A stretch of DNA of 64,000 bases, from the IMG/VR virus record IMGVR_UViG_3300037249_001000, positions 75,540 to 139,539 of that record. One strand, written 5' to 3'. Shown here one piece after another: positions 2,956-61,702 of the stretch. The position numbers and the translations under genes are program-made. Source of the stretch: a virus. Taxonomy: Duplodnaviria > Caudoviricetes. The notes beneath the pieces were generated by a model, which worked only from the letters and a program-made list of their open reading frames with translations, ran no database searches and was not told where the DNA came from. How positions within the stretch are numbered: position 1 is the first letter of the stretch; each line of letters starts with the position of its first letter.

Positions 2956-3000
2956 AGAGAGTTAAGAAAGGAGGTGAAAACCAACTCTCTTTTTTTTTAT
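2956..3000 (+). terminator. Intrinsic terminator with a Shine-Dalgarno sequence in its loop (copy 1)
   Basis: GAGAGTT..AAAGGAGGTGAAAACC..AACTCTC followed by a T run; near-identical copy at about 5577..5620. Confidence 0.7.
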
Positions 3001-3048
3001 TTGTCTTAAAACTTTTTAATAAATTCATAATTAGGAGGAAATAATATT

Positions 3049-3855
3049 ATGGGTAAAAATTTTTTAATTGATGCATTAAGAACAGCTAATCCTAAATCAT
3101 CTATGTTTACAGGTGATGCTTCTGTTTTATCTTATAAAACAGGATTTCCTATTTTAGATTATTATTTAGGTTACTTAGTTAATGTACATGATGAGAACAA
3201 TCAGATTGTAGAACAATATCCAAGTATTGGTATTGCCGCAGGTTGTTATCTTACATTTATAGGTAAGCCATCTACAGGTAAAACAACATTTGCTGTTCAA
3301 GTTGCGTCTAATATTGTAAGACCATTTGATAATGGTTCTGTGATTCATTATGACCTTGAAAAAGCAATGAACTATTCAAGAATTCAAATTCTTTCTAAGT
3401 TTAATATGAAAGAAATGAATGAGGGAAAATATATACTTAAACAAGAGAAAACATCTATTCAGGATATTAAATCTGCTATTATGCAAATTTATAAAGAGAA
3501 AACAAGAAATCCTGAATTGTATAAGTATAGTACAGGAAAGAAAAATGAATTTGGTGATGAAATTTTTTTATATGAACCAACGGTTGTTATCATTGATTCT
3601 ATTCCTATGCTTAGTTCTGCTATAAATGAGAATGATAAAAAAGAAGCAGCTAAACTTGAAGAAATTTCATCACAAACCGATAGAATGAGACTAACTGCTG
3701 AAATAGGAAGATTTTATTCAGAACTTCAGCAGTATATTAAAGAAGCAAATATAATAGTTATTTCCATTAATCAGATTAAAACTAACCCTGACATGGGTAT
3801 TGTTAAATCACCATCTGAAATCCTTTATTTGAGTACTAACGAATCTCTGCCTGGT
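3049..3855 (+). CDS. uvsX: RecA/UvsX-like recombinase, exon 1
   Basis: Walker A GKPSTGKTT, YDLE, Walker B VVIIDS, ISINQ; ends ESLPG at the intron 5' splice site. Confidence 0.85.
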
Positions 3856-4248
3856 AAACAAATCTGCCACAAAATAGCGTAAGCTATTGGACAAACTCTC
3901 CTAATTACTGGGAACTTCTATTAATAGGACAATCAGTAACGAAGTATCTTACTACGATAAGATATGTGTTCAACGACTATCGGAAGCTATACAATCATAT
4001 AGAAATGTATGATTTGAGAATAGTGTGAGTTGAAATACTTGCATGAAGTGAGTAGAGTAACGCCCAAGTTATTGGGGTTGGTAGTTAGATGAGATTAGTC
4101 TAACATAAACCCATTAAAGTGAAACGGAGAGCTCCAGTATATTTGGTAACAGAATATATTGGATGAAGATATAGTCTGAACGTTTATAGAAATATAAAGA
4201 AAGTATTTATACTTGTATGAGTCTAACGAACTCGTATTAACATTTTTG
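3856..4248 (+). mobile_element. Group I intron in recA/uvsX (393 nt, no ORF)
   Basis: Exon ends in U (GGT) pairing with GCC in P1; core elements GTTCAACGACTA and GAAGATATAGTCT; terminal G4248; splicing restores LPG|GKAPQFLA (RecA TPGGRALKFYA motif). Confidence 0.9.
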
Positions 4249-6935: not shown

Positions 6936-9221
6936 ATGGCAGAAGTACAAAAGTATTCATTAAAAGAAAAATTAACAGAAGCTGACAAAAGTTTATATAG
7001 GTCACCTTCTCTTTATGGTATGAGTGCTTTAACTATACCACGTTACATCAATTCAATGAGGTCGGTTATGTTTACTAACCACCTCAAACAATTTTTAACT
7101 CCACTTGACCCTGATTATCCATTTGTATTTACAAATGCAGAAAATCTTGTTGGTGAACATAGTAGTGGTTATAGGAGAATAAAACATGAATCCGAAGTAT
7201 ACCGAAAAGTTGTTAAATATGAAGATATACTTGGTAGTGATGCAAACGTATACAAACTTTTTATTCTTGATAAAAAGAAAAAGAAGTTTGATGTAATTGA
7301 AAGAAAAGAAGTTGAAGACCTTACAGAAAATTTCGGTTTTAATTATAATAATGAAGAAATTGATAAATATTCTGAAGGTGATACTATAAAGAAAGATACC
7401 GTTCTTTATAAATCGACTTCTTATGACGATGATATGTTTTATGGTTATGGAAAGAATACAACTGTAATGTATACATTAGACCCATATACATCTGAGGATG
7501 CAGCAGTTGCTCGCAGAGGTTATGCTGATAACTATAAAACTATTGAAACAGAAGTTATTCAAATTAAATTAAATGATAATGATTTTCTGTTGAATCTTTA
7601 TGGTGAGGAAGATGGGGAATATAAACCTCTTCCAGATATTGGTGAAACATGCACTGGCATTCTTGGTGCAATAAGAACCCAATTCAATGATCAACTACTT
7701 TATGATTTTAAATCATCTTCATTAAATAAAATTCATGACGGTGATAGAATTATTTATGTAAATGATACAAATGAAATTGTAGATATTACGATATTTTCTA
7801 ATAACGAAGAAATTGTTGATACAATTTTCAATACTCAAATTAATAAATATCTTGAGTCTCAAAATAAATATTATCAAGAGATTTATGATACATGTAAAGA
7901 AATAGTTGAATTTTGTGATTTTAATGCAGGATATTCATATTCACAAGAAATAGATTATTTGTATAAACGTTCTGGTGAAATGTTGGATACTAAAAAGAGA
8001 TGGAAAGAGGGTGACACATCTTTTGCTAATATGGTAATTGAAATAGTCATTCGCAAGGAAGTTCCTTTACGTAAAGGCTGTAAATTGAGTGGACGCTATG
8101 GGAACAAATCCGTTATCTCAGAAATTAGAGACGATGATAAAATGCCATTTACTGAAGATGGAAAGCCTGTTGATTTACTTCTCAATCTTCTTGCTATTAT
8201 TAACAGAACAACTTCATTTGCTATCTATGAATTAATTATAACATCTATTTGTTATAAAGTTCGTCAGAAAATGAAAACATTAAATTCTTATGAAGATAAA
8301 GAAAAATTAATGTTCGATATAATTAATGAATTTAACGAAATTCAGTATGAAGACATGATAAAGAGTTATAACAAATTATCTGATTCTGAAAAGAAATTAG
8401 TTATAGATGAAGCAATAACCGAAGGCATCTATATTAATCAGTCACCTGTAAAAGAAACCAAACCTATCTTTTATCGAATTAAAGATATTCTTGATAAATA
8501 TGATTGGCTTCAACCAGATTTTGTATATATTAAAGATAGCAATGGTAGAAAGATTAAAACTCTTTCTCGTCATTGGATTGGAGATATGTACATTATTAAA
8601 TTAAAGCAGTCTGATAGAAGAGGATTTAGTGCACGCTCTACTGGTACTGTTGATATTAAGGGAGTACCAACTCGGTCATTTAAATCGAAAAATCATATGG
8701 AAAAACACTCAGATTCTGCGATCCGTTTTGGTGAATCAGAGACATTGAACTTTTCTATAGGTGTTCCAAGTGAAGATATTGCATTATTTAATTCTGTTTA
8801 TCGCACATCAATAAAAGGAAGAGAGCAACTTGTAAAAAGTATGTTTAATTTTGATGGAAAGAATAATGAAAATAAAACTAAAATTGATTCTGCATATACA
8901 TCTCGTGTTGCAGAAATATTTGCAGTATTCTTTAAATCATTGGGACTTGAAATTGATTTTGTTGATGAAGATAGCGTTGTACGAGGTTATGATAATAATG
9001 AAATTAAACTTCATACTACTGATGATGGGGAAACTCTTCTTTGTACAGATTATGAGTTTTTCTTGAAACAGAGATATGATGAAATTAAAGAAGAGATTCT
9101 TAAAGAAAATATTATTATGACTGATGAACAACTTAAATCAGAAATTGAAGCAAGACTTAAAGAAAGGAAATTCATTAATGGACCGTTGTATGATGAAGAT
9201 GGTTCATTATTGTTTGAATAA
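6936..9221 (+). CDS. Multisubunit RNA polymerase beta subunit, C-terminal half (probably non-virion RNAP)
   Basis: RSVMFTNHLKQ, SEDAAV, GCKLSGRYGNKSVIS, DLLLN, MYIIKLKQ..SARS, IRFGESE; early motif at 6882..6898. Confidence 0.9.
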   Translation: MAEVQKYSLKEKLTEADKSLYRSPSLYGMSALTIPRYINSMRSVMFTNHLKQFLTPLDPDYPFVFTNAENLVGEHSSGYRRIKHESEVYRKVVKYEDILGSDANVYKLFILDKKKKKFDVIERKEVEDLTENFGFNYNNEEIDKYSEGDTIKKDTVLYKSTSYDDDMFYGYGKNTTVMYTLDPYTSEDAAVARRGYADNYKTIETEVIQIKLNDNDFLLNLYGEEDGEYKPLPDIGETCTGILGAIRTQFNDQLLYDFKSSSLNKIHDGDRIIYVNDTNEIVDITIFSNNEEIVDTIFNTQINKYLESQNKYYQEIYDTCKEIVEFCDFNAGYSYSQEIDYLYKRSGEMLDTKKRWKEGDTSFANMVIEIVIRKEVPLRKGCKLSGRYGNKSVISEIRDDDKMPFTEDGKPVDLLLNLLAIINRTTSFAIYELIITSICYKVRQKMKTLNSYEDKEKLMFDIINEFNEIQYEDMIKSYNKLSDSEKKLVIDEAITEGIYINQSPVKETKPIFYRIKDILDKYDWLQPDFVYIKDSNGRKIKTLSRHWIGDMYIIKLKQSDRRGFSARSTGTVDIKGVPTRSFKSKNHMEKHSDSAIRFGESETLNFSIGVPSEDIALFNSVYRTSIKGREQLVKSMFNFDGKNNENKTKIDSAYTSRVAEIFAVFFKSLGLEIDFVDEDSVVRGYDNNEIKLHTTDDGETLLCTDYEFFLKQRYDEIKEEILKENIIMTDEQLKSEIEARLKERKFINGPLYDEDGSLLFE

Positions 9222-9232
9222 TAATTAATTGG

Positions 9233-9262
9233 TTGGGGCAATAAAAAAATATTGCCCCAATT
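9233..9262. terminator. Hairpin between the RNAP genes
   Basis: TTGGGGCAAT..ATTGCCCCAA inverted repeat, followed by early motif TATATATTATTTTTT. Confidence 0.55.
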
Positions 9263-9327
9263 GGTTATATATTATTTTTTGGACTGCGTAGAAATATGTA
9301 GAATTTATAAATAAGGAGATAATAATT

Positions 9328-10560
9328 ATGGGTAAGAAACAATCAGTGCATATTAGACGTCTTAATTGGGACATTTCCTTTTATGCCGATATGCTAGACG
9401 GTAACGGATTTCAAATAATTGAACCATCTGGTATTTCGATTAATGGTATGAAGAAAAAATCATTATATGGTGCTTCATCACCATTATATGGTACAAGTTA
9501 TGAAGATGAACAATCGTTTATTGAACGATATAGATGTTCATGTGGTGAATTTAAAGGTAGATTATTTGAAGGGGAAGAATGCCCACTTTGTCATACTAAA
9601 GTAGAATATAAATCTAGTAATATTAATGTTACTGGATGGATTTCTTTAGGTATTAAAAGATGCATTAATCCATACTATTTCAATATTCTTCTTTCAGCAA
9701 TAGGTAAAAATGTATTTACTGAAATTATATTTAGTAAATATCGTGTTACTACAGACGGTCAGAGAAAGAAATTAACAGCAGATGACCATATGGATGTAGT
9801 ACCGGAATCAATTTATTCGTTTATTGGTATGAATGAGTTTTATAATAATTATGAAGAAATTCTCACATATTTTAAAAATAAGAAGAAAAATAAAGCTCAC
9901 ACTTTTGATGTTTTATTAAAAGAAAAAAGAGCTGTATTTACTTCTCACATACCAGTATATTCGACAATGTTAAGACCACAATCAATTACATCCGATACAT
10001 TTTATTTTGGTAGTATTGATAAAATTATTAATACATTATATTCACTTAGTGAACACTTAAAAGATGCAACAGATGTAGAAGAAGATTATATTCTGGAAAG
10101 AATCCAGAAAAAAGTTAATAAAATGTGGGACATTAACCTTGAATTAATCAATGGTAAAGAAGGATGGGTAAGACATCAATTGCTCGGTGGTTCAATGAAC
10201 TATACTGCAAGAAATGTAATTATTCCCGATCCGACTCTTCATGATAATGAAGTTGATTTATCATATAATACATTTTTGGAGATGTATAAGTATAAGATTA
10301 TTTATTATATCATGCAACTTGATAATACATCATTGTCCAGAGCATATGAGACATGGAAAGATGCATTTAGATTTGATGAAAAAGTGTATCAAATTATGTT
10401 ACATGTATTGGATAAAGAACAACCAAGATTATTGATAAATCGAAATCCTACATTGAATTATTACTCAATGATATTAATGAAAATAAGAACTATTAAAAAA
10501 GATATCACCGATTATACCCTGTCAGTTCCGCTTAGCATACTGCCAGGTCTTAATGCGGAT
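9328..10560 (+). CDS. RNA polymerase beta' subunit, exon 1
   Basis: Zinc finger CSCG..CPLC, MLRP, ARNVIIP, NRNPTL; ends PGLNAD. Confidence 0.9.
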
Positions 10561-10916
10561 CAACTTTCAAGGTCCGAGAGCACAGTAATGTGTTTCTATG
10601 TACGTTGTGAACTCCTAACAAGAGGTGTGACGAAAGTTGCTAACGGTATCAGTTAAATAAGTCACTTAAGTTTAACTTAAGTAGAGCGAATACACTGACT
10701 AAGAAAGCCTGAGGTCCTGAAAAGGATAGCTTGGTAATACCGTGCTGTTATTTTTAAAAGTGATTTAAAAATAGTAGTGTAGAGACTAACAAAAGCAATT
10801 TTAAATTGTAAGTAGGGTAGGTTTTAGTTTGAGGGCTAGAATCGAAGTGCAACGCCCCTATATTAATATAGGGTGAAGATATAGTCCACGCTGTATCGAA
10901 AGATATGGGTTTCGTG
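10561..10916 (+). mobile_element. Group I intron splitting the catalytic NAD|FDGD motif (356 nt, no ORF)
   Basis: P1 CGGAU/GUCCG with U.G pair at the splice site; GTAGAGACTA and GAAGATATAGTCC core; terminal G10916; splicing restores NADFDGD. Confidence 0.93.
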
Positions 10917-13247
10917 TTTGACGGTGATATCTTAAATATAATAGGTCTTATGAATAAAGCATTTGTATTCATGTTTAGAAAATATGACCCAGTAATGAGA
11001 ATGATTATTAGTAGAGATTCACGTCTCATCAATGAATACTTTTCTATCAATAAAGGTCAGTTAATTGATTTGTATACATTTGCAACTTATGATGGTGAAG
11101 ATGGTTGTAATACTGAAGAATATTATCCTGAAGAAGAAACTATTCAGAAAGATAAGTTTAGTCTTTTAGTAGATTCACCTATTATAAATAATACAAGAGA
11201 ATTAAAAGCATGGTTAAAAGATATATATATCTTAGAGGATTATTTAGAGTCATATGAACAATATAGAATATTCCAGACTAAGATTTATAATATTCTTAAA
11301 GGCTGTTTTGTAATTCCTCAGTGTAGAGATTATCCTATAAGATTTAAATTTACGGCTAATTCAAAAGAATATGTATTACCATTAAGATTGTTTATAATAA
11401 ATACTATTCTTTGGTATCCATTTGTAGAACTTAATGGAATAAATGTTTTAGATGAATCGTTTATCATATTTAATCCAGAAGTATTACCTAATATTGAAAA
11501 TTATCTTAATGATAATTTAATTAGTATCCTTACTGAGTATCATGTTAAGCCTTCAAGTATGAACTATGCTATTTCAGAAGTTTTGTACAATCTTAGAGGT
11601 ATTTCTAATGATTATTCTATTATTCTTGGTTTGGATTTTAATATTCCTATGTTTACAAAACTTTATTCTGAAAATGATAGAATACGAGAAATAATGGAGT
11701 GTCATTTTGAAAATGATGCTCAACCACATGAAATTGAACAAGAATTATCTGTATTGGAAAAGGAATTTATCGGTATTGTTACTGGATTGAAAGATAACCA
11801 TTTAGGTATTGCATTAAGAGCTCAAACAGGTATTAAACATAAACAGCTTACAGAGTTTGCAATATCTGAAGGACTTAAACCAGATATATCTGGTAGAACT
11901 ATTCCAATTCCAATTCAAACATCAACATTGATTGGTGGTACTAATACACCTAGTGCACAATATATTGATGCAGCTGCAGCTCGTAAGTCATTGATTATGA
12001 ATAAAAAGGTTATGGGTATTGCAGGTCATTTTGGTAAAACAGTTCTTATGAGTGCTCGTACTCTTAGTATGAGTACAGAAGTCTCAGATTGTGGAACAAA
12101 ACATCTGGTTGCTTATGATGTTTTGAATAAAACTATTCTTAAGAAACTTACTGGTAAATTTTATAGACTTACAGATGACCCTGAAGAAGAATTAAAACTT
12201 CTTAATGCAAAGAAAGATAAAAATCTTATAGGTAAGACAATTTATGTACGTTCCGCTGCAACATGTGCTTGTAGAAATCAACATCATGTATGTGCTAAAT
12301 GTGTTGGATTAACTGCTGTAATTAATGCAGATATTTCAGATGGTATTTCAGCATTTGAATCAGAAGAAATTACAAAAGTTGTTAATCAGAATATTCTTTC
12401 TGCAAAACATTTGTTGTCAACAAATTCTGAAGAGATTAAATTCAATAAAGAATTTTATGATTTCTTTACAATTGTAGGTGGTGAAATAAATCCGATTGTT
12501 AATGAAAATTCTAATGTTAATATAAAGGATTATGCTATTTATGTTGACCCAAGTGATATTGTAAAGATGGAAGAAATGGATGATGATTCATTGTACAATA
12601 CAGTTATTGAAACTGGTAGATTCTTCATTCGTAATATCAATGATCCATCTGAACCTGATATTGTTATTCAAGTAGAGGGTGAGAAAGAAATCTTTATAGA
12701 GGAAAGTATATTGGCTTTATTAAGATCTGGTAATAACATGATTAAGTTTACAGACCTTGAAGATGATGATAAACTCTTTGAAGTTATTATTATGAATAAT
12801 GAGTTGACAAAACCATTGTATGAGTTGATGCATTTGTTGGATAAACAGAGTAAGGATACTATTAATATTGATATTGATTATATTAGTAATAAATTCCTTA
12901 GTTTGGTAATTGATGCAAAGATAGATGTATCTGCTATCGCATGTGAGCTTATTATTAATAGACTTATTCGTTCAGCTGAAGATATTTATCGCCGTCCTGA
13001 TTTCTCAAAGGATACGTTAGAACCATATGTAATTTTTACAGTGAGAAAATCATTGGAAAAGAATCCATCACCTTTGATGGGGATAGGTTTCCAGAATATT
13101 AAACGTCAGTTGTTATCGAATGATTTGTTTGAAAAGAGAACTGAAACATCATATATTGATAACTTCTTTAAACCAACAATATCAACGGAGAATTTGTCTA
13201 AATATGCTGTTTATTATGATGAAAACTCATTAAACAGTCCTAAATAA
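10917..13247 (+). CDS. RNA polymerase beta' subunit, exon 2 (includes the whole beta'-C part; spliced product 1187 aa)
   Basis: FDGD, bridge helix AAAARKSLIMNK..AGHFGK, DCGT, RSAATC..CAKCVG zinc site, QNILSAKH. Confidence 0.88.
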   Translation, partial: FDGDILNIIGLMNKAFVFMFRKYDPVMRMIISRDSRLINEYFSINKGQLIDLYTFATYDGEDGCNTEEYYPEEETIQKDKFSLLVDSPIINNTRELKAWLKDIYILEDYLESYEQYRIFQTKIYNILKGCFVIPQCRDYPIRFKFTANSKEYVLPLRLFIINTILWYPFVELNGINVLDESFIIFNPEVLPNIENYLNDNLISILTEYHVKPSSMNYAISEVLYNLRGISNDYSIILGLDFNIPMFTKLYSENDRIREIMECHFENDAQPHEIEQELSVLEKEFIGIVTGLKDNHLGIALRAQTGIKHKQLTEFAISEGLKPDISGRTIPIPIQTSTLIGGTNTPSAQYIDAAAARKSLIMNKKVMGIAGHFGKTVLMSARTLSMSTEVSDCGTKHLVAYDVLNKTILKKLTGKFYRLTDDPEEELKLLNAKKDKNLIGKTIYVRSAATCACRNQHHVCAKCVGLTAVINADISDGISAFESEEITKVVNQNILSAKHLLSTNSEEIKFNKEFYDFFTIVGGEINPIVNENSNVNIKDYAIYVDPSDIVKMEEMDDDSLYNTVIETGRFFIRNINDPSEPDIVIQVEGEKEIFIEESILALLRSGNNMIKFTDLEDDDKLFEVIIMNNELTKPLYELMHLLDKQSKDTINIDIDYISNKFLSLVIDAKIDVSAIACELIINRLIRSAEDIYRRPDFSKDTLEPYVIFTVRKSLEKNPSPLMGIGFQNIKRQLLSNDLFEKRTETSYIDNFFKPTISTENLSKYAVYYDENSLNSPK

Positions 13248-19187: not shown

Positions 19188-20423
19188 ATGACAAATATAA
19201 ATCACAAAGATCTTATTATATTAGAAATATATAATAGATATTCTCGTGGAGAAATAACAACCGAAGAACGTAATATGTTATTTAATAAATGTGATGAAGT
19301 ATTTAATGAAGCTGGTAATATATTACTTAATGAAGATAGAGTAGAATATAATTGTGATACATTGAGACCCAATTCAAATAATAATATTTTATTTATTACC
19401 GGATTTTCTGGTTCGGGTAAATCAACGTTGATGGACGAACTTTATCAAAAATATCAAGATAAAATTATTATGGTTTCAGGTGATTTCTTTTTTATGACAT
19501 GTAGATATAAGTATAGAAAAGATATGTCAGCAAAATATGGAAATAAAAATTTTAATTTTAACAGAAATGAAAAATTTGGTTTCGATAGTGAAAAAAGTAG
19601 ACAGTTTCTTGGACCTATAATAACTAGATATTTTGATATCTACTATGATTCAATCACACTATCATATGACAAATTTAGTAATCCAGAATTAATAAAATAT
19701 TGGGAACATTTTGTTCTTTGGTTATATGATGATATCAATAAAAATAAATATTTATACAGAGATAAAATTATTGTTGCAGAAGGAACGCAAATCTGCAATT
19801 CAAACCCAGAATTATATAAAGATCATGCAGTAATAATTACAGGAACATCTGCATTGGTTTCATATGCTCGTAAAGCTAATAGAGATATCATTATCCCTAA
19901 AAAATATGATTGGAAACATATGAAAACATTATTAACAATGATTCCTGTATATATAAAAGATATGGGAAATATAAATAGATTACAAAAAACTATGGAAATG
20001 TTTGATGAATCTACTAAATATGATAAATATTTAAATGATGTGAATGAAATAATATCTAAACTATCTAAAGAAGAATCAAATTATATTGGCAGAGGACAAT
20101 GGGTTGATTCTGAATATGTTATATATAGAAAAGTTGAATATAACGATAATATACCAATAGCTTTTATTGATGTATATTTGATGCCTAAATATGAAAATAC
20201 CGGATTAATAGTTATTGCTGTTTCTAAAGATGCTCGTGGTAAAGGTATTGGAAAGAAACTTGTGAAAGGAGCTATTAATTCTCTTAAAAGTAATAAAGAT
20301 ATTGATAGATTACGATGGAAAGTTGATTCTAATAATAAAATATCTATAAATATGGCAGAATCGTTAGGTTTCGAATTATCTGAAACTACTAAAAAGGAAA
20401 AAATTTATTATTATAATTTATAA
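19188..20423 (+). CDS. SHOCT-like leader + P-loop nucleotide-kinase-like domain + GNAT acetyltransferase
   Basis: GFSGSGKST; VSKDARGKGIGKKLV and NKISINMAESLGF GNAT motifs; leader shared with 14318. Confidence 0.8.
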   Translation: MTNINHKDLIILEIYNRYSRGEITTEERNMLFNKCDEVFNEAGNILLNEDRVEYNCDTLRPNSNNNILFITGFSGSGKSTLMDELYQKYQDKIIMVSGDFFFMTCRYKYRKDMSAKYGNKNFNFNRNEKFGFDSEKSRQFLGPIITRYFDIYYDSITLSYDKFSNPELIKYWEHFVLWLYDDINKNKYLYRDKIIVAEGTQICNSNPELYKDHAVIITGTSALVSYARKANRDIIIPKKYDWKHMKTLLTMIPVYIKDMGNINRLQKTMEMFDESTKYDKYLNDVNEIISKLSKEESNYIGRGQWVDSEYVIYRKVEYNDNIPIAFIDVYLMPKYENTGLIVIAVSKDARGKGIGKKLVKGAINSLKSNKDIDRLRWKVDSNNKISINMAESLGFELSETTKKEKIYYYNL

Positions 20424-49506: not shown

Positions 49507-50388
49507 ATGCTAATTCGTCATAATAAAGATTGCTCCGATATGGGTTGCGTATTTATTTCAGAAAAAAGTAATATGGATTGTAGAGATATTACTGGAGTAG
49601 ATGTACATGATAAGCATGGTGTATTTTTTGTATCGTTTGATGCAAACTTACATTCATTTGATGTAATTAATAGAAACAAACGTCGTTATCTATTATCAAA
49701 TGTAAAAAGTGCTATTGAAGAATCGGAAAAGATTCAATCTTGGTTGGCAGATAATGCATGGTTTGGTGAGATGAATCACCCAACTCAATATTATAAAAGC
49801 CAAGAATTAACTCCTGAAAGATTACAAGACCCTGCATTGGAGAATAGGTCACATAAAATTTTAAGACCAACATTTAATGGTAATTTATTACAAGCACATA
49901 TTGAAACAGCATCAGGTACAGATGTCGGTGTTGGTTTCGCTAAAGAAATTATTCAAGGATTAAAACCTGCATTTAGTTGTCGTGCTGTTGCTACAATGCA
50001 AATGATTGATGGAAAACCGACTGTACTTATTCGTAGATTAATTACATACGATTGGGTTCTTTATCCGTCGCATAAAGAAGCACATATTATTAGTGAACCA
50101 AAACTTGTTGAAAAGTGTGTTAATGTATATAAAGAAAGTACAAATGATAATACAGATGAATATGTACCTGACTTTATGATTTCATTAAAAGATGTGCTTA
50201 AAAATGTTGGTGAAATAGATGCCAATGTATCTACTATTATGGAATCGTTTGATTTAACATATGATGATATAATTGGTGTTAATAAAAAGCATGATAAAGT
50301 TATTATTAAAGATGTGGATAATAGAATTTATGCTAATATAAGTCCTGAAACAAAACATAGAATAGATGATTTCTTTTCATCATTTTAA
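49507..50388 (+). CDS. Prohead core protease (T4 gp21-like)
   Basis: NRNKRRY, GEMNHP (catalytic His), SH.I, PAFSCRA (catalytic Ser), TYDWVLYPSH; late promoter 49466..49477. Confidence 0.85.
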   Translation: MLIRHNKDCSDMGCVFISEKSNMDCRDITGVDVHDKHGVFFVSFDANLHSFDVINRNKRRYLLSNVKSAIEESEKIQSWLADNAWFGEMNHPTQYYKSQELTPERLQDPALENRSHKILRPTFNGNLLQAHIETASGTDVGVGFAKEIIQGLKPAFSCRAVATMQMIDGKPTVLIRRLITYDWVLYPSHKEAHIISEPKLVEKCVNVYKESTNDNTDEYVPDFMISLKDVLKNVGEIDANVSTIMESFDLTYDDIIGVNKKHDKVIIKDVDNRIYANISPETKHRIDDFFSSF

Positions 50389-53497: not shown

Positions 53498-53523
53498 TTT
53501 TAATCCCCTTTCAAATTTATTAA

Positions 53524-53940
53524 TTAGATGTATTGTTGTTTATTAAAAACAAAATTAAATTGTAAAGCTCCATAACTATCCATAGTAACACCTAATACTA
53601 ATTCATTTCTCGCATTAGAAATAATCGTAGGTATTTTAAATACTATCATAGGTTGCTCTTTATATCTAGCTTTTATTACATCAAAATCACCATCAGTAAT
53701 TTGAGGAACAAAATCACTACATTGGGCGGCTAGAATAGCTTTGACCATAGTAGTATCAAAAGTATCATCGAATGAATATAAATACTGACTTATATTCATT
53801 CCTAATTGTGGTATACTTGGATAAAATCCTGGCTTACCAAATAATAGTGTTAATATATTATAAGCTACAGTTTCCGATTCTGATAATGATTTTGGTTTAT
53901 TATAATGATTAAGACCAAATACCGGATCAACAGCCATTAT
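53524..53940 (-). CDS. Baseplate wedge protein (gp25-like)
   Basis: ILTLLFGKPGFYPSIPQLGMNISQYLY matches the gp25 ll.T..Ge....P.fG..l..yl pattern. Confidence 0.65.
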   Translation of the reverse strand: MMAVDPVFGLNHYNKPKSLSESETVAYNILTLLFGKPGFYPSIPQLGMNISQYLYSFDDTFDTTMVKAILAAQCSDFVPQITDGDFDVIKARYKEQPMIVFKIPTIISNARNELVLGVTMDSYGALQFNFVFNKQQYI

Positions 53941-54055
53941 ATTATCCACCTTTCTATTAAATTAAACAAATGTCTTATATATAAAAATAAATTTCCTTAT
54001 ATTAATATATAAAAAACATTGTTTTAAAGCATTGTATTTATTGTGAGGTGATAAA

Positions 54056-56446
54056 ATGGGTACAAAAAGAATTACATGTAAATTTTGCGGTGAATACATG
54101 AAATCATACGATTTATATGTTTCTCATATAGAATCATCTCATTCAGAATCCATTCCTCAAGATATGACTGCATGGAGATTTGTTTATTATTTAAAAACTG
54201 GTAAAACTCATGGGTCATGTATTATATGTAAAAATGATACTGAATGGAATGAAAAAACTCATAAATACCATAGATTCTGTAATAATCCAAAATGTAAAGA
54301 AAAATATGTAGAAACATTTCAAAATAGAATGATTGGTAAATATGGTAAAGTAAATTTACTTAATGACCCAGAACAACAAAAAAAGATGTTAGCTAATAGA
54401 AAAATTAGTGGAGTATATACTTGGAGAGACCATGTACATGAAACTCCTTATACTGGTACGTATGAATTAAGTTTCTTAAAGTTTCTTGATGAAGTATTGG
54501 AGTTTAATCCTGAAGATGTGATTGGACCATCTCCTCATACATACTATTATATATATGAAGGTCAAAAACATTTTTATATTCCTGACTTTTTTATTCCATC
54601 GCTAAATTTAGAAATAGAAATAAAAGAGGGGACTAATAATCATCCAAAAATTCAAGCAGTTGATAAAGTTAAAGAAAGACTTAAAGATGAAGTAATGAAA
54701 TCTAATTCTAACAGTTTCAATTATATAAAGATAATTGAAAAGAATAATTTTAGATTTATTGAATTTTTAGATGAAGCTAAAAAGAGATTTCTAAATGGTG
54801 ATAAAAGACCTATTGTTATGTGTGAATCAGTTGAGGATAATTTATTTGATGAATTAATTACCGAAAATAAAATTATAAATGATAAAGATATTTATTATAA
54901 TAAAGATAAATTTGATTCTGGAGAAATTAATCTTTGTTTTATAACAGGTCATTCAGGTTCAGGTAAATCAACTATGGGTAGAGATATGGAATCCGATAAA
55001 ATAGAACATTATGATTTAGATGATGTAATTTATAACTGGAACTTTTCTGATTCTAATTTAAAAGAATATGGTGATTTAATATATTCTTTTTTTAGAGGTT
55101 TTGGAAAAAAATATAGATACATATCTCGTAAAGATTGGGATAATGACCCAACATGGGATAATAAAAACGAGTATAAAGATGCATATGAAATTTCCATAAT
55201 TAAAGATTTTATTAAATATACAAAATATTACGTTAACTCTCATAAAAATATTAAGTTTGTTATAGAAGGTGTATGGATTTTTCATTTTATTGAACCAAAA
55301 GAAATTGATAATTATGCAGTATATATTAAAGGAACATCCCAAACAATTAGTTCTATTCGTGCTGCAAAAAGAGATTCTGAAGGTGATAATAAATTTAAAA
55401 AGTCTATAGATTTTATAAAACAAATAGCATCACCAGGACGTACAAAAAAGTATATTCATGATGAACAAAAAGTAGTAAAATTTAGAAATTATTTTAAAGA
55501 TAAAATTAAAAAACAAAAAATAATAACTGAAACAGTTGAAGATAATTTATTTGATGAATTAATTACTGAAAATAATAAATTTCATCTTTATCATATATCT
55601 AATAGACAAAATATCAAAACTATTAATCCATCAATTCCAAATAATTTTATGACAAAAAACAATTATGAGGAAAATAAAACAAAAAGAGTTTGTTTTGCTC
55701 CATCGATTGATCAATGTTTAATGGGACTTTCAAGAAATTGTGAAGGGGAAGAATTTTATGTTTATATCCCAGTCAAACATTATAAAACATATTCTCCAAA
55801 TATTAAAGATGTGCCTGATTCAGGTATAACTGGAGAGATATGGATTAAAGAACCTGTTGATGTAATTTGTCTTGGTAAAATAAAAGTATTAGATACCAAC
55901 AAATCTCCAGGCAAATTATATACATATGGTAATGGGCAAACAGCAGAATTATATGCTTTTGATTATAAATGGATTGAAAAATATAAACAAAAAGAATCAC
56001 CGGAACGCACAAAAAATTATATCCGTGATGAACAAAAAGTAGTAACTGAATCAGTTGATGATGTAACAAATAAACCAATTATTAAAACTAAAAATACATA
56101 TATGATTAAAAATGATAAAGGAACTATTATATCCAAATTAAATTATTATGAATATAAAGTTAAAAATTTTGATTGGATTTTGATGGCTGATCTTGATACT
56201 AAGCCAGATTATAGAGGTAGAGGATTAGCTACTAAACTTATAAATGAATTATATAGTGACATAACAAAAAATACAAATAAGGGTTTATATTTATTTGTAA
56301 AATCGGATAATCGGACTGCTATTAGATTATATACTAAATTAAATTTTAAAAAGGTAAAAAATTATACATTAAAAGATGGTGAGTATATTATAATGGCAAA
56401 AGGTAATGCCGATATGTCTCAATTTGATAAAATGAATTTTTCTTAG
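54056..56446 (+). CDS. Multidomain protein: Zn fingers + TnsA/gp4-like PD-(D/E)xK nuclease + P-loop kinase + ART-like domain + GNAT
   Basis: CKFC..H..H; YIPDFFIPSLNLEIEIK; GHSGSGKST; LYHIS..RVCFAPSI..TGEIW; YRGRGLATKL..NRTAIRLYTKLNF; late promoter 54015..54026. Confidence 0.8.
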   Translation: MGTKRITCKFCGEYMKSYDLYVSHIESSHSESIPQDMTAWRFVYYLKTGKTHGSCIICKNDTEWNEKTHKYHRFCNNPKCKEKYVETFQNRMIGKYGKVNLLNDPEQQKKMLANRKISGVYTWRDHVHETPYTGTYELSFLKFLDEVLEFNPEDVIGPSPHTYYYIYEGQKHFYIPDFFIPSLNLEIEIKEGTNNHPKIQAVDKVKERLKDEVMKSNSNSFNYIKIIEKNNFRFIEFLDEAKKRFLNGDKRPIVMCESVEDNLFDELITENKIINDKDIYYNKDKFDSGEINLCFITGHSGSGKSTMGRDMESDKIEHYDLDDVIYNWNFSDSNLKEYGDLIYSFFRGFGKKYRYISRKDWDNDPTWDNKNEYKDAYEISIIKDFIKYTKYYVNSHKNIKFVIEGVWIFHFIEPKEIDNYAVYIKGTSQTISSIRAAKRDSEGDNKFKKSIDFIKQIASPGRTKKYIHDEQKVVKFRNYFKDKIKKQKIITETVEDNLFDELITENNKFHLYHISNRQNIKTINPSIPNNFMTKNNYEENKTKRVCFAPSIDQCLMGLSRNCEGEEFYVYIPVKHYKTYSPNIKDVPDSGITGEIWIKEPVDVICLGKIKVLDTNKSPGKLYTYGNGQTAELYAFDYKWIEKYKQKESPERTKNYIRDEQKVVTESVDDVTNKPIIKTKNTYMIKNDKGTIISKLNYYEYKVKNFDWILMADLDTKPDYRGRGLATKLINELYSDITKNTNKGLYLFVKSDNRTAIRLYTKLNFKKVKNYTLKDGEYIIMAKGNADMSQFDKMNFS
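54824..56045 (+). repeat. Two pairs of intragenic direct repeats at domain junctions
   Basis: E(S/T)VEDNLFDELITEN at about 54824 and 55529; SPxRTKxYIxDEQKVV at about 55430 and 55997. Confidence 0.85.
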
Positions 56447-56463
56447 ATTTGGGGTGATAAATA

Positions 56464-57366
56464 ATGGATAGAGATATATTTTTATTTGAAAAAATGAATG
56501 AAATATATGATAATAAAATTTCTTTTATGATAGATTCATTGAATAACCAATTAAAGATTAATATGTTAGAAGCACAATATAAAGTAATTACAGAATCAGG
56601 TACTAAAGAAGATTTTGAATATCTTTACATGGAAGCACAAGAACAAATGAAAGAAAAGAAAAAAAGTATATTTAATAGTATAATTGAGTGGGTTAAAAAA
56701 ATTAAAGATAAAATAGTAGATTTCTTTACTAAGAAGAAAATAGAAAAAAAAATAAATGATTTACCTGATAAATTTCAAATTGATGAAGGATATGAAAAAC
56801 AATTTAAAGGTTTTAAAAAATTTCACGAATGGCTTATTAGACCAATAAATCTATTTAAACAAAAAAACTATAAAGCGTTAACATTTGACCTTATTAAAAA
56901 AGGTGCAGAAATTACATCAACTGCAATCGTAATCAATCAATGCAACAATATTATTTCAATGAATAAGCCATTTTTAAAAGAATGTGCTAATTGGATTTTG
57001 AAAGTATTTAAAACAGATTGTGATGAAATATTAAAAGTTTTTAAAATAAATGATGATGATTCATTACCTATAAAAAATTTAAAAGTAATTATTAGTATGA
57101 TTAATAAATTAGTAAGTTCAGCGTTAAATTGGTGTATTATTGTACCAAGTAAAGCTATTTCTAATATATATAGTAAATCGGTAGAAAAAACATTAAATAA
57201 AACCATGTTCAGAAATCATACTATTTCCAAGAAAAACATAGATAAAATGAATGAGAATGATTGGTATGAAGAACTCGATGATGGGATACTTGATAAAAAA
57301 ACAGGAAAATTTATTTCATACGATGAAATAATAAAAAAGAATGAAGAAAAACATAAACAATGCTAA
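56464..57366 (+). CDS. Putative internal head protein, family B
   Basis: Leader MDRDIFLFEKMNEIYDNK..MLEAQYKVITESGTKEDFEYLYMEA shared with 59742 and 60833. Confidence 0.6.
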   Translation: MDRDIFLFEKMNEIYDNKISFMIDSLNNQLKINMLEAQYKVITESGTKEDFEYLYMEAQEQMKEKKKSIFNSIIEWVKKIKDKIVDFFTKKKIEKKINDLPDKFQIDEGYEKQFKGFKKFHEWLIRPINLFKQKNYKALTFDLIKKGAEITSTAIVINQCNNIISMNKPFLKECANWILKVFKTDCDEILKVFKINDDDSLPIKNLKVIISMINKLVSSALNWCIIVPSKAISNIYSKSVEKTLNKTMFRNHTISKKNIDKMNENDWYEELDDGILDKKTGKFISYDEIIKKNEEKHKQC

Positions 57367-57378
57367 GGAGGATTAATA

Positions 57379-58704
57379 ATGTATGAATTAGATAATTTAT
57401 TTTCAGAAATTATGTTAGAATCTCCAATTCTTCATAAATCAGAAGTTGATATCGCTTCTGAATATAAAATGGACATTTTAAATCATTGGGTTGATTTGTC
57501 ACATGATTTTAAAACACAAATAAGACTGACTCCTCAAGACATTGCAAAAGAATATAAAGAACGACACCACGAGAAAATGAAATTAAGTAGATTCTCAAAT
57601 TCATTTATGAAAATAAATGAAAACTTTGTTGATATTGTAGTACCTATTAATGCTACATTTCATAATAGATTTTCTGATATTTACAAAGATATTACCGACC
57701 ATATTTCTGAATATGATGTATATGACAAGGCTGATGATGATTTAAAGTTAATTAAAAAATTAAAAGAATTATTATTCTTACCAGTTGAATCAATGGATAC
57801 TATTACATATATATTCGTTGAGTTTTGTCGTATTTTAAGAAATATAGACAAAGATTGTGAAGGGCTCATTAATTGTTTTTTACGATTATTAAATTATAAA
57901 TTAGATACACTGGAGATAGAATTAAATTATTATAATCAAAATACTTATTTATCTGGTGGAAATTATTATGGAAGAATTTTATATACCATTCAATCAATAA
58001 ATGAAAGTAAAAATCTTCCTGTATTAATACCCGATTTATCTGCTTTAGTTTATTTATTTCTTAAAGAAATACATGCTCTTGAATCAGGTGGAATATTTTT
58101 TTATAAATACTTTAAACAACCCGTAGCTGATATTGTTCTTAAAAGAGTTGAAGAAATGAAAAAACAAAATATAGATTTAATGGATGTATTAGATATGATT
58201 AATATTAATTCATTCCCTAAACCTATATTAAATAAAAATAAACTAACTGAAAATTATGATAATTCCTTTATATCAGATGAAAAACTTGGTGAATATTTAC
58301 TCTTTGGTCCTAATATTTTTAGAGATTTAGAAACTGATATGAGTATATATGAAATAATTCATAAGGCTTTTTCCTTTACTAAAGAAGATATTGAAGGATT
58401 ATTTGATATAGATACAGATAGTTGTGAGGCTTTATTTATACTAAGTTCAGATAGTAAGATATTTTTAAAATTAACTGAAGATCTTCAAATTATGGATATT
58501 TTACGAAAAGAAGATGGTAGATTTTTAACTTTAATGAAATATAAAGACATTGATGATATTTATCTTGCATATGAGTGTCATTATAAGGAAAATATACATA
58601 ATGTAAGAAGTGTATTAGGTGTATCTCTTCTTGGTAAAAATGAAAATATTATTATTCCTAATGATGAAGAGAGAAAATATAAATTTATATATGGAAAGGA
58701 TTGA
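57379..58704 (+). CDS. Hypothetical, probably virion protein
   Basis: 441-aa ORF in late operon; IMLES near the N-terminus. Confidence 0.55.
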   Translation: MYELDNLFSEIMLESPILHKSEVDIASEYKMDILNHWVDLSHDFKTQIRLTPQDIAKEYKERHHEKMKLSRFSNSFMKINENFVDIVVPINATFHNRFSDIYKDITDHISEYDVYDKADDDLKLIKKLKELLFLPVESMDTITYIFVEFCRILRNIDKDCEGLINCFLRLLNYKLDTLEIELNYYNQNTYLSGGNYYGRILYTIQSINESKNLPVLIPDLSALVYLFLKEIHALESGGIFFYKYFKQPVADIVLKRVEEMKKQNIDLMDVLDMININSFPKPILNKNKLTENYDNSFISDEKLGEYLLFGPNIFRDLETDMSIYEIIHKAFSFTKEDIEGLFDIDTDSCEALFILSSDSKIFLKLTEDLQIMDILRKEDGRFLTLMKYKDIDDIYLAYECHYKENIHNVRSVLGVSLLGKNENIIIPNDEERKYKFIYGKD

Positions 58705-58709
58705 TAATC

Positions 58710-59729
58710 ATGTCTAAAGATTTAATATATAATGCAGTTACAATTCTTATGGAGAGCGATGTATCTGATAGAAAAAACTTTGGTACTGAATTTTATAATA
58801 CTAGAATGATTCTTGAAGATGTAAATTCTCCTGTAAATGTAAAATATAAAGAAAAACTTTATCAATCAGTAATTGATAAAGGACATATAGATTTTGGTAG
58901 TATTCCAGCATCTAAAGGTGATATTACAAAATATTCTGGCTATACTAACATGATGGAAGTTCTTAATGTTATTATGAAATTAGGAACAGCTGAAAAATCT
59001 AATGCTGTTAAATATGCTAAAATTGTTTTAGAAGCGATTGGTAATATTCAGTCATTATCACAAGTTTATCAAAGAGGTTTTATGACTAAAACTGAATATG
59101 TAATGCTTGAATATAATACATATGTATATACATGTGTTGAAGCAACAACAGCTTTGATATATGAGTTTGTTGAATACATCAAACTTCCGGGTAAACAAAC
59201 TTATGACATTAAACTTGTCAATACTAACCTTAGAGCAAATCTTTTTTATTTTGAGCAACTTACTAACTTTAATAATGTAAATACTAATATGCGTGATAAT
59301 TATAAAAAGATGCTTGAAGGTATGATTAACGGTGGTAAAGATAATTTTATTGGCGGAACAGAAGCTTTAGGTCTTGCTGCTATATCGTTGGCTGCTTTAG
59401 CTATTATTCCTATTACAAGAGAATTGATTTATCATTTCTATAATTTGAGAACTAATTTATCAAATGAGTTAGAATTACAAGCAGCTTTTCTTGAGATGAA
59501 TAGAGCTTGCGTTGAATCTAATGAAGAATTTACAGCTGAAAAGAAAACTAAAATTTTAGCAAAGCAAGAGAGTTGTAGAAAAACATTAATCATGCTTGCT
59601 GAAAAAATCAGAATTAAAGAAGTTAAAGTTACTAAAGATAGTAAAAGAGAACTTGAAATGGATAATAAAAAAATAACTGCTAATAATATTAGAGACGAGG
59701 TTTCTAATTCAGCATTAGAATTATTATAA
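58710..59729 (+). CDS. Putative virion protein with one hydrophobic segment
   Basis: ALGLAAISLAALAIIPITR; ILMES near the N-terminus. Confidence 0.55.
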   Translation: MSKDLIYNAVTILMESDVSDRKNFGTEFYNTRMILEDVNSPVNVKYKEKLYQSVIDKGHIDFGSIPASKGDITKYSGYTNMMEVLNVIMKLGTAEKSNAVKYAKIVLEAIGNIQSLSQVYQRGFMTKTEYVMLEYNTYVYTCVEATTALIYEFVEYIKLPGKQTYDIKLVNTNLRANLFYFEQLTNFNNVNTNMRDNYKKMLEGMINGGKDNFIGGTEALGLAAISLAALAIIPITRELIYHFYNLRTNLSNELELQAAFLEMNRACVESNEEFTAEKKTKILAKQESCRKTLIMLAEKIRIKEVKVTKDSKRELEMDNKKITANNIRDEVSNSALELL

Positions 59730-59741
59730 AGGAGAATTATT

Positions 59742-60815
59742 ATGAATAAAGATACTTTATTATTTGAAAAAACAAACCAGATATATGATAATAAATTTGA
59801 TTTTATGATTAAAAGTTTTACAAATCAATTTGAATGTAACTTATTAGAATCTCAATATAAAATTATTAAAGAATCTGGAACTAAAGAGGATTTATTTTAT
59901 TTATATACTGAGGCAAAAGAAGATTTTAAACAGAAAATGTTATCGATTATTAAACGAATTAGAGATGAAATGGTAAAATTTATAAATCAAATAAGTTATA
60001 GTATTGGTAAATTTATGACATCATTACAGATAAAAATATATTCTAAAAAAATTGAAAATATGGAAAATTTTTTAATAAATAAAATTGGATTAAGTAATGA
60101 AGATGCGATTGCATTTACTGAAAGATTTTCAACATATGCAGCAATATTAGAAAAAAAGATGATGATTTATGATAAATTTACGTTAATGGTCGAACAAAGA
60201 AATGTTAGAGGAGAACCAATTACTGAACAAGAATTAGAACAATTTGAAAGAGCTTTATCTGAAGTAGATCTACAATATAAAGACCAAAAAAAACTTATTC
60301 GTCCTCAATATACAACATGGAATTTATATAAAAAATCATTTAATCCAGAATTTTATAAATTTATGTCTATCAATGTGGATAAAACTTATTCTGCAGTAAG
60401 AAATAAAATAGATAATGAGCCAAATCCTACTATTATTAGTAGATTAACTTCATTTTTCAAACGCCAATTTAACGATATTAGCACATATTTAAAAAATACA
60501 TCTGCTGCTATGAGTGAATTAAAAGAGATCAGTAAAAATCGACATATACCAAAAGATACAACTAATTATGAAAAATTGGCAGAAACAATGTATATATTAA
60601 ATGAACTTGATCGTATAGACATTAATAATGCTAAATTGAGAAATGAAGTTAACCAAATACGTATTCAAGCTGATAGATTGGATAGAATGGGAATAGAATA
60701 TAATGATCCTGATTTATTGGCACAAGCTGAAAATCTCAGAGATAGAGCAAGAATTGCTCAAAGAGAAGCAAATTATTATAATAGAAATAGTTATAATAAT
60801 TTTTATAATTATTGA
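59742..60815 (+). CDS. Putative internal head protein, family B leader with unrelated body
   Basis: MNKDTLLFEKTNQIYDNK..LLESQYKIIKESGTKEDLFYLYTEA. Confidence 0.6.
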   Translation: MNKDTLLFEKTNQIYDNKFDFMIKSFTNQFECNLLESQYKIIKESGTKEDLFYLYTEAKEDFKQKMLSIIKRIRDEMVKFINQISYSIGKFMTSLQIKIYSKKIENMENFLINKIGLSNEDAIAFTERFSTYAAILEKKMMIYDKFTLMVEQRNVRGEPITEQELEQFERALSEVDLQYKDQKKLIRPQYTTWNLYKKSFNPEFYKFMSINVDKTYSAVRNKIDNEPNPTIISRLTSFFKRQFNDISTYLKNTSAAMSELKEISKNRHIPKDTTNYEKLAETMYILNELDRIDINNAKLRNEVNQIRIQADRLDRMGIEYNDPDLLAQAENLRDRARIAQREANYYNRNSYNNFYNY

Positions 60816-60832
60816 TAAAGGAGACAAGAATA

Positions 60833-61702
60833 ATGGATAGAGATATATTTTTATTTGAAAAAATGAATGAAATATATGATAATAAACTTTCTTTTATGAT
60901 AGAATCTTTAGATACACAAATGAAAATTAATATGTTGGAAGCACAATATAAAGTTGTTACAGAATCGGGTACTAAAGAAGATTTTGAATATTTATATATG
61001 GAAGCAAAAGAAGAAATAAAAGAAAAAAAGAAAGGTATATTTGATGGTATAATAAAATGGTTACAAAAAATTAAAAATAAAATAGTGGATTTCTTTACCA
61101 AGAAAAAAATAGATAAAAAAATTAATGCTTTACCTGATAAAGTTGAAGTAGATGAATCTAAAAAGAAACAATTTTCATTATTCGAAAAGTTTCATAAATG
61201 GTTAATGAAACCGATTAATTTATTTAAACAAAAAAAATATAAAGAATTGACTGCAGATTTAGTTATGAAAGGAAGCGAAATAGTATTAGCATGTTTTGGT
61301 ATTAAAGAAGTTTATAAATTTATCATATTGAATAAATCTGAAATAAAACAAAAAGCTGATTGGATATTTAAACATTTTAAAACAAGTTGTGATGATATAG
61401 AATCTATGTTAAAAAATACTTTAAGTCATAACGATGATGAATCGTTCCCAATGAAAATACTTAGAGATTGTGTAGGATTTATTGGTAGAATATCTAGTAA
61501 AGCATTAGATTGGATCGTAACTATAGGTCATGTACCAAATGCAGTAGCAGATAAAGTAGGTTATAGTATATATAAAGATAACCAAAGAGATAAAGAAGAA
61601 TATGCCGCTAGATATGAAAAAGAAAAAAACGGAACACTTAAAAAAGGTGATATAAAATGGGGTTATCGTACTAATATAGAACCTTTACCAAAAAAAGGAT
61701 GA
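60833..61702 (+). CDS. Putative internal head protein, family B (close paralog of 56464)
   Basis: Near-identical first 150 aa; AAGGAG RBS favours ATG 60833. Confidence 0.6.
   Translation: MDRDIFLFEKMNEIYDNKLSFMIESLDTQMKINMLEAQYKVVTESGTKEDFEYLYMEAKEEIKEKKKGIFDGIIKWLQKIKNKIVDFFTKKKIDKKINALPDKVEVDESKKKQFSLFEKFHKWLMKPINLFKQKKYKELTADLVMKGSEIVLACFGIKEVYKFIILNKSEIKQKADWIFKHFKTSCDDIESMLKNTLSHNDDESFPMKILRDCVGFIGRISSKALDWIVTIGHVPNAVADKVGYSIYKDNQRDKEEYAARYEKEKNGTLKKGDIKWGYRTNIEPLPKKG

Follow-up and report, generated by a model that had tools for sequence, protein, structure and literature searches.

A jumbo-phage gene joining a constant nuclease to exchangeable enzyme modules through Glu-site linkers: a candidate substrate of the prohead protease

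The window analysed here is a stretch of 64,000 nucleotides that forms the last 64 kb of a single 139.5-kb phage contig with 27% G+C. The jumbo-phage genes on this contig include those for split multisubunit RNA polymerase beta-type subunits, a DNA polymerase, a DnaB-like helicase and an anaerobic ribonucleotide reductase. The subject of this report is an open reading frame (ORF) at 54056–56446 of the window that encodes a polyprotein of 796 amino acids (aa), and DNA nearly identical to this stretch is present in bovine-gut metagenomes of many studies. From the N-terminus the polyprotein consists of a Zn-finger PD-(D/E)xK nuclease, a P-loop kinase fold, an ADP-ribosyltransferase (ART) fold and a GNAT acetyltransferase. 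An earlier interpretation made from the letters alone (the sequence-only reading) had claimed that one ORF joins four such modules and that a related acidic linker lies at each junction. The ORF is open over its whole length, all four modules were supported, and the three linkers were found as written at residues 255–271, 490–506 and 663–669. The features of the gene are listed below, with a slash marking each candidate cut and model confidence given as the predicted local distance difference test score (pLDDT).

54056–56446, plus strand: whole polyprotein ORF, open, 796 aa, stop codon at 56444–56446
54056–54817, plus strand: module 1, nuclease, residues 1–254, with C2H2 and CxxC zinc fingers and PD-(D/E)xK; phrog_15137
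54818–54868, plus strand: linker 1, residues 255–271, MCESVEDNLFDELITEN, read as MCE/SVEDNLFDELITE/N, candidate Glu sites E257 and E270
54869–55522, plus strand: module 2, P-loop kinase fold, residues 272–489, Walker A GHSGSGKST, model pLDDT 88.9
55418–55478, plus strand: first copy of a direct repeat (family D2), SPGRTKKYIHDEQKVV, closing the kinase module; 87% identical to the second copy
55523–55573, plus strand: linker 2, residues 490–506, ITETVEDNLFDELITEN, read as ITE/TVEDNLFDELITE/N, candidate Glu sites E492 and E505
55574–56041, plus strand: module 3, ART fold, residues 507–662, model pLDDT 87.8, ART matches in VIA
55985–56045, plus strand: second copy of the direct repeat, SPERTKNYIRDEQKVV, behind the ART-fold module
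56042–56062, plus strand: linker 3, residues 663–669, VTE/SVDD, single candidate Glu site E665
56063–56443, plus strand: module 4, GNAT acetyltransferase, residues 670–796, above the cut-offs of four Pfam GNAT families

The structure check that the sequence-only reading had proposed for every module was carried out with models for the kinase and ART folds, while GNAT was placed by Pfam and the nuclease by PHROGs and its motif. Residues 6–240 match phrog_15137 (‘endonuclease’) with E=1e-60. The nuclease motif IPDFF...LEIEIKEG (PD...EIEIK) can be read in the translation together with the C2H2 and CxxC motifs, and the Pfam family PvuRts1I-like_N scored 20.8 against a cut-off of 27 and is thus sub-threshold. 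A megablast search with the polyprotein gene gave no match among phage records. Using tblastn, jumbo-phage nucleases 41–52% identical to residues 1–242 were found.

Module 1 is the syntenic orthologue of AR9 g233, BpSp gp288 and phiR1-37 g237. These genes and UFVDC4_00081 of the Staphylococcus phage DC4 (‘endonuclease fused to N-terminal Zn finger domain’) lie at the same position, divergent from a gene annotated as baseplate wedge. The positional equivalent of that gene in the window is:

53524–53949, minus strand: divergent gene of 141 aa, equivalent in position to the relatives’ baseplate gene; synteny anchor

The relatives’ labels for this gene are ‘base plate wedge subunit’ (AR9 g232), ‘putative baseplate protein’ (BpSp gp287) and ‘phage structural protein’ (phiR1-37 g236). 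The divergent pair of Zn-finger nuclease and small gene is kept in AR9, BpSp, DC4, phiR1-37, the Fusobacterium phage JD-Fnp1, dozens of IMG/VR contigs and this window. The record of phiR1-37 annotates g237, the nuclease itself, as ‘phage structural protein’. The structural-gene setting is confirmed: the polyprotein gene adjoins the equivalent of the relatives’ baseplate gene and lies upstream of ORFs for a virion structural protein (phrog_23545) and phiKZ_IP-like proteins. Unlike the polyprotein, the nucleases of the cultured Bacillus, Staphylococcus and Yersinia phages are ~238 aa long, stop at the nuclease end and have no cargo. The accessible passages of the BpSp proteome paper do not mention gp288.

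The gene at 2956–4128 of JD-Fnp1 (L105, ON464759.1) is labelled ‘DNA gyrase subunit A’ and encodes a 390-aa Zn-finger nuclease orthologue with ~150 extra aa at the C-terminus. The label looks wrong. We considered that a nuclease had been inserted into the gyrase gene of Fusobacterium phages and rejected this, as the labelled gene is a nuclease-plus-cargo orthologue in the usual position. The gene that follows it, a ‘cysteine peptidase’, opens with a leader ending IAE/S.

The kinase module was modelled with a 34-sequence alignment (model mda8da787165d). The top Foldseek matches of the model are, without exception, dephospho-CoA, adenylate or UMP-CMP kinases or PezT (probability 0.99, E ~2e-3). 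GxSGSGKST, D, EG and R..R, the lid arginines, are conserved across the 34 sequences, and Pfam AAA_18 matched weakly, below cut-off. It had been proposed that this kinase phosphorylates host targets. The kinase fold stands; protein phosphorylation is not implied, because the fold is that of a small-molecule or nucleotide kinase.

The ART model (m0f59d256943b) covers residues 506–650 and was built with 16 sequences. Among its top matches in VIA, 26 of 27 are chains of the ART superfamily, with Z values of 6.9 for TreX (root-mean-square deviation 3.3, 105 aligned), 5.6 for EcPltA and for the heat-labile enterotoxin LT, 5.2 for Scabin and 5.0 for Arr. These values are modest, and the weight of the assignment lies in the consistency of the list. 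The best Foldseek match was Arr (E=0.11), with an Atlas hint to Arr-ms, and the module also matches phrog_5043 and phrog_10766. Neither the kinase nor the ART model gave a Foldseek match at E<=0.001, so that both fold calls rest on the consistency of weaker matches and on the VIA Z-scores. When PDB sequences were searched with phmmer, the nuclease, the kinase module and the protease described below had no match, and the ART module had chance-level matches (E>1) only. In module 3, R544 and E594 are invariant, and E594 stands just ahead of a strand, like the catalytic Glu. The strand-1 position is H or F (LYHIS or LYFLS), and neither the H-Y-E nor the R-S-E triad is conserved. Thus, of the earlier suggestion that this domain possibly ADP-ribosylates host targets the ART fold remains, and the ADP-ribosyltransferase activity is putative because the canonical strand-1 His/Arg is not conserved.

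Module 4 passed the cut-offs of FR47 (39.8 bits against 22.1), Acetyltransf_1 (38.3 against 20.7), Acetyltransf_7 (33.7 against 27) and Acetyltransf_10 (25.4 against 23.6). Pfam and PHROGs scans found no peptidase family in the polyprotein (P0001).

In linker 1, two candidate Glu sites flank a 13-residue acidic peptide, and model confidence is low in this region (pLDDT 54–60). The polyprotein contains two copies of the 13-residue peptide VEDNLFDELITEN, whose coding DNA differs at 2 of 39 nt, and the rest of the 139.5-kb contig has no further copy. Linkers 2 and 3 are each preceded by a copy of another repeat, SPxRTKxYIxDEQKVV (61 nt, 87% identity). The tail of module 3 thereby repeats the C-terminal segment of the kinase module, and the two direct-repeat copies bracket the ART cassette (compare the relatives P0007 and P0010 below).

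The sequence-only reading had also called the ORF late. One copy of AACA-N6-TA, the proposed core of the AR9-type late promoter, is found at 54015, ahead of the polyprotein ORF. The window contains 68 copies where 94 were expected from shuffles, i.e., the pattern is not enriched and the promoter argument does not survive a chance test. A late promoter argued from this copy was therefore rejected, and the label was not borne out. Contigs from an RNA library (X15) span part of the gene. As DNA may be present in such libraries, this coverage cannot demonstrate transcription.

Relatives of the polyprotein were collected from 5.8 billion proteins. The search yielded >900 homologues of 437–1393 aa on contigs of up to 297 kb, and architectures were counted in the best 120 of these. 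The nuclease is common to 105 of the 120. Behind it the cargo varies in both set and order, with modules of the kinase-fold, ART-fold, GNAT, HAD hydrolase, metallophosphatase, NUDIX and transglutaminase/papain-like types. The variation extends to near-isogenic phages: 19 proteins share the linker and have a nuclease 97–98% identical to that of the polyprotein, but they are built differently (nuclease-kinase-GNAT, nuclease-ART-GNAT, nuclease-ART and nuclease-X-kinase-ART-GNAT). One relative (P0010) equals the polyprotein without the stretch between linkers 1 and 2, and another (P0007) equals it without the stretch between linkers 2 and 3. A locus with flanking genes 95–98% identical (L001) carries the nuclease and ART only.

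Breakpoints at the linkers are also seen in metagenomic DNA. Contigs from three bovine-gut DNA runs end at 54865–54868, 55539–55570 and ~56031, and they also branch at 54865–54868. One of the three runs has almost no depth across the ART module, and a contig of another bovine-gut run joins 54868 to 56075. Near-isogenic cargo variants and contig breaks together make the linkers the points at which cargo is gained, lost and exchanged in natural populations, a role missed in the sequence-only reading.

Over 53500–57400, assemblies of four independent bovine-gut runs (X2, X3, X5 and X15) break exactly at the linkers and at the 3′ end of the gene, and the fraction of records running into unlike sequence is 0.26–0.70 in these runs. 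Such contig breaks and unlike continuations are a sign of many co-existing cargo variants.

Among the more distant architectures, the carrier is not always first. At 7941–10976 of locus L005 a leader is followed by ART, kinase, GNAT and nuclease modules, in this order, with more behind them, and at 5625–11309 of L006 a chain of ~1895 aa contains the nuclease together with transglutaminase-like, kinase, ART, NUDIX and two GNAT modules. On three smaller phage contigs (L010, L011, L012) the same ART-fold module follows an N-terminal HHGIxGxKWGVR motif, and in L011 and L012 it stands after a GNAT-like region, without h-x-E joints (h, hydrophobic). The ART cargo thus appears to be attached in another way on these contigs.

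The joints were examined in a set of distant homologues (P0021–P0121), in which non-identical starts of kinase, ART and GNAT modules were counted. The motif [LIVMF]-x-E-[SANG] lies at most 20 aa upstream of 85 of the 106 module starts, compared with 16% of random windows from the same proteins, which is ~five-fold above background. Of 93 distinct cargo-bearing proteins, 85 have h-x-E as the first site behind the nuclease. In these, E invariably occupies P1, while P3 is I (44), M (21), V (14) or L (6), and P1′ is Ser in 56 of the 85 (66%). The linkers are otherwise unrelated between lineages, with INESQVVLE, IIESEES..VFES, LAEN..VTEA and others. Sixteen distinct metagenomic orthologues are cargo-free (<60 aa beyond the nuclease). 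The majority end ...PIFMx, corresponding to P4–P2 of the first Glu site, two residues before that Glu, and a few retain a short acidic tail after h-x-E. Stand-alone ART-fold modules (MSIYLLE/S, MRFKLVE/S) and kinase-fold modules (MYVNE/N, MYINE/S) open with leaders of 5–20 residues that end in the motif. In a genome-wide count, the motif at residues 20–60 of all ORFs reached 0.74 and 0.49 against ~0.3 per 100 aa, which is too weak to use. The prediction that orthologues keep the nuclease and the Glu-site linkers while the cargo varies is strongly borne out by the counts of 105 in 120, 85 in 106 and 85 in 93.

A protease gene lies upstream of the polyprotein:

49507–50388, plus strand: prohead (head-maturation) protease, Pfam Peptidase_S80 and phrog_3014; 3.7 kb upstream of the polyprotein

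The ORF at 49507 scores 35.2 bits on Peptidase_S80 (cut-off 23.4) and E=2e-18 on phrog_3014, and 17.6 bits, below cut-off, on S77, the family of T4 gp21. It had been described as a gp21-like protease; it is indeed a head-maturation protease, of the S80 type represented by phiKZ gp175 and not of the S77 type. H91, S157 and D182 are invariant in 33 homologues. A nearly invariant h-[ML]-E-[SA] is found in these homologues ~45 residues from the protease C-terminus, here as TIME/S with E246. When viral contigs were scanned with the protease, no relative came up. A predicted complex of protease residues 1–250 with polyprotein residues 244–283 scored 0.02 and is not used as evidence either way.

In the same alignment, protease residues ~205–250 form a variable, gap-rich stretch with a conserved Glu-Ser at either end (E210 and E246). 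The protease is likely to cleave itself at these positions, by which a C-terminal tail of 47 residues would be lost. The SPN3US protease gp245 trims off its own C-terminal propeptide in a similar region (PMC5694885).

We propose, with a probability of about 60%, that the polyprotein is virion cargo cut in trans by the prohead protease. A virion-type nuclease, swappable enzymes and joints that resemble prohead-protease sites are found in one chain, which is therefore probably loaded in the capsid, cut and injected. The chain would be made with the head proteins and enter the prohead, and the S80-type protease (49507) would cut after E257, E270, E492, E505 and E665. This would yield a ~30 kDa nuclease two residues longer than the cargo-free orthologues, two 13-residue acidic peptides, a kinase-fold protein of 222 aa, an ART-fold protein of 160 aa and a GNAT protein of 131 aa. 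The released enzymes would travel out of the capsid together with the DNA, and their targets would be those of the host or of its defences. The linkers double as recombination points for the gain, loss and exchange of modules, and the cargo set differs between near-identical phages because modules recombine there. The modules, the repeats, the conserved junction motif, the shuffling of cargo at the linkers, the synteny and the protease gene are shown directly; packaging, cleavage and injection, together with the activities and targets of the enzymes, are what we infer from sequence.

A more far-reaching version of this proposal, which we hold tentatively and at somewhat less than even odds, makes the linker a portable unit that serves as a leader for capsid targeting, as a double Glu site for cleavage and as a point of recombination. 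The nuclease would then be a plug-and-play carrier, and gut jumbo phages would continually reshuffle their injected enzymes from one late hypervariable effector-cassette gene. If this holds, the gene would be an effector cassette array in an arms race with host defences.

Several observations weigh against cleavage at the joints. The motif is short, ~16% of 22-residue windows in the AT-rich proteome carry it by chance, and motifs of this type are also found within the folded modules, at residues 166, 189, 238 and 402. About one fifth of the junctions are without it, and the 85 of 106 junction contexts are phylogenetically not independent, so that a binomial significance overstates the case. 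In 43 cases h-x-E stands six residues before the kinase module, and this fixed distance could mean that it is part of the fold and not a cut site. Linker 2 is modelled within a long confident helix. P3 is hydrophobic at the joints, as opposed to the A/S/G favoured by characterised S80 proteases. Finally, the N4 virion RNA polymerase is a packaged polyvalent protein that stays unprocessed (PMC5512222).

The strongest rival explanation is an uncleaved polyvalent effector, packaged or cytoplasmic, in which the linkers are flexible spacers conserved as points of homologous recombination. We regard it as unlikely in this form, while giving it a real minority share. Phages with 97–98% identical nucleases differ in cargo with breakpoints at the linkers, P0010 and P0007 each lack what lies between two linkers, L001 carries the nuclease and ART only, bovine-gut contigs end at 54865–54868 and 55570 or join 54868 to 56075, and the linker repeats differ by just 2 nt in 39; all of this fits such spacers, and unprocessed packaged polyvalent proteins are known (PMC5512222). 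However, recombination needs DNA identity and not a conserved Glu, and h-x-E-S persists in linkers that are otherwise unrelated. Leaders that end in the motif are also found on stand-alone modules and neighbouring proteins (below), where there is no module swapping, and the cargo-free nucleases stop exactly at the first site. As recombination at the linkers is observed, this rival is partly true, and the two roles, cleavage and recombination, are compatible.

It is improbable, to our judgement, that the protein has nothing to do with the virion, i.e., that module 1 is a selfish, homing-type or DNA-processing nuclease with appended intracellular auxiliary or anti-defence enzymes and that the Glu motifs reflect composition. 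The Staphylococcus jumbo phage DC4 is reported to have several VSR-like homing-endonuclease domains, and the accessible part of its limited virion mass spectrometry list does not include the nuclease orthologue (PMC10638138). AACA-N6-TA is not enriched in the window, so that a late promoter is unproven. Against this stands the fixed position of the nuclease, divergent from the gene annotated as baseplate wedge, in phages of Bacillus, Staphylococcus, Yersinia and Fusobacterium as well as dozens known from metagenomes, which is unlike a mobile endonuclease gene, as well as the structural annotation of phiR1-37 g237 and a junction motif ~five-fold over the background of the same proteins.

Cutting of the cargo polyprotein by a host protease, or by the papain/transglutaminase-like module of some family members, is very improbable: some homologues do carry Gln_amidase, DUF553 or Transglut_core papain-fold modules and built-in peptidases have been proposed to process polyvalent proteins (PMC5512222), but the polyprotein and most of its close relatives are without a peptidase module, and the motif fits Glu-specific prohead proteases and recurs in the C-terminal region of the protease itself.

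The proposed virion cargo resembles the polyvalent proteins (Iyer, Burroughs, Anand, de Souza and Aravind, 2017; PMC5512222), in which unrelated effector domains (ART, GNAT, nuclease, NUDIX, papain-like) are joined in one chain as a domain mosaic, the genes lie in a virion-gene setting, and delivery with the DNA has been proposed. The polyprotein has at least two unrelated effector-type domains and a virion/packaging gene context, as in that class, and the cargo types of its family match those of injected polyvalent proteins (PMC5512222). Processing of polyvalent proteins is ascribed to an internal zincin-like peptidase (MPTase), frequent though not obligatory (PMC5512222), whereas no peptidase module is present here. 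The polyprotein further differs in having joints with a Glu-type prohead-protease motif and a leader-like acidic peptide, and in its carrier, a syntenic jumbo-phage nuclease. The text of Iyer et al. contains neither ‘linker’ nor ‘jumbo’ (PMC5512222).

The joints themselves are closest to the capsid-targeting sequences of T4. The T4 leaders (IPI-III, Alt), which the prohead protease gp21 removes, end in (I/L)-x-E, and the linkers here read ITE/N, ITE/T and VTE/S. In Alt, an ART that T4 packages, gp21 cleaves at ITE-6 and LTE-619 (PMC5694885). T4 cargo is injected with the DNA, as we propose here, but each T4 cargo is encoded by a separate gene and carries one N-terminal tag, whereas here the tags are internal and repeated and one gene would give several cargos. 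The hydrophobic P3 of the joints is gp21-like, whereas the protease of this phage belongs to S80 and not to S77.

The proteases of phiKZ, 201phi2-1 and SPN3US cut after x-x-E, with Ser favoured at P1′ in SPN3US (PMC5694885, PMC10052503). These S80 proteases (phiKZ gp175, 201phi2-1, SPN3US gp245) are of the same family as ORF 49507, make several cuts per precursor and cut their own C-terminus (PMC10052503, PMC5694885). Their substrates lose N-terminal propeptides of 20–254 residues, which are degraded, and chains of independent enzymes are not known among them. Their sites have A/S/G at P3, whereas the joints here have I/M/V/L. Picornavirus-like polyproteins, from which individual enzymes are released by cuts at short conserved sites in a single translation product, are an analogy only. 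RNA-virus polyproteins comprise replication and structural proteins and hold the protease within the chain, unlike the polyprotein described here.

A literature search found no description of a jumbo-phage polyprotein cut by the prohead protease. The precursors of the T4 capsid-targeting/gp21 system and of the phiKZ and SPN3US S80 systems all carry a single cargo, and the multi-enzyme chain is the new aspect. Also new are the near-isogenic cargo variants, the contig- and read-level breakpoints at the linkers and the cargo-free C-termini at the first site, as well as the leader/linker match of ORF 57379 (below), the conserved site in the protease tail and the fold assignments of modules 2 and 3.

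If the joints are cut, giant phages would deliver a changeable enzyme set from a single gene. Any module placed behind a leader-plus-Glu-site linker would become capsid cargo, and recombination at the linkers would alter the set within a population. This would extend the T4 ‘load and clip’ principle to multi-enzyme chains and give polyvalent proteins a trans-acting processing route. Hundreds of unstudied enzymes in uncultured gut and rumen phages (ART-fold, kinase-fold, GNAT, HAD, NUDIX, papain-like) would become candidates for host takeover or anti-defence, and the linker rule could serve as a design principle for packaging foreign proteins in large phage capsids.

Downstream of the polyprotein, five ORFs open with comparable leaders that carry Glu sites:

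56464–57366, plus strand: first of three paralogues, two Glu sites near residues 35–47
57379–58704, plus strand: neighbouring ORF, 15-residue N-terminal leader MYELDNLFSEIMLE/S that resembles the polyprotein linker
58701–59729, plus strand: virion structural protein, phrog_23545, N-terminal leader ending ILME/S
59742–60815, plus strand: second paralogue, two Glu sites near residues 35–47
60812–61702, plus strand: third paralogue, two Glu sites near residues 35–47

The leader MYELDNLFSEIMLE/S of ORF 57379 is invariant in homologues that are 42–97% identical, while the residues after it vary, and it resembles the linker stretch EDNLFDELITE/N. The three paralogues share an N-terminal region with NMLE/AQYKVITE/S. 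One of them, 56464–57366, has a weak, sub-threshold match to phiKZ internal head proteins (phiKZ_IP), and the three are possibly inner-body or ejection proteins.

Elsewhere in the window, at 19188–20423 on the plus strand, a second cargo-like chain of 411 aa is encoded. It opens with a leader ending VFNE/A, followed by a kinase-fold module 28% identical to module 2, the sequence MFDE/S and a GNAT-like C-terminus.

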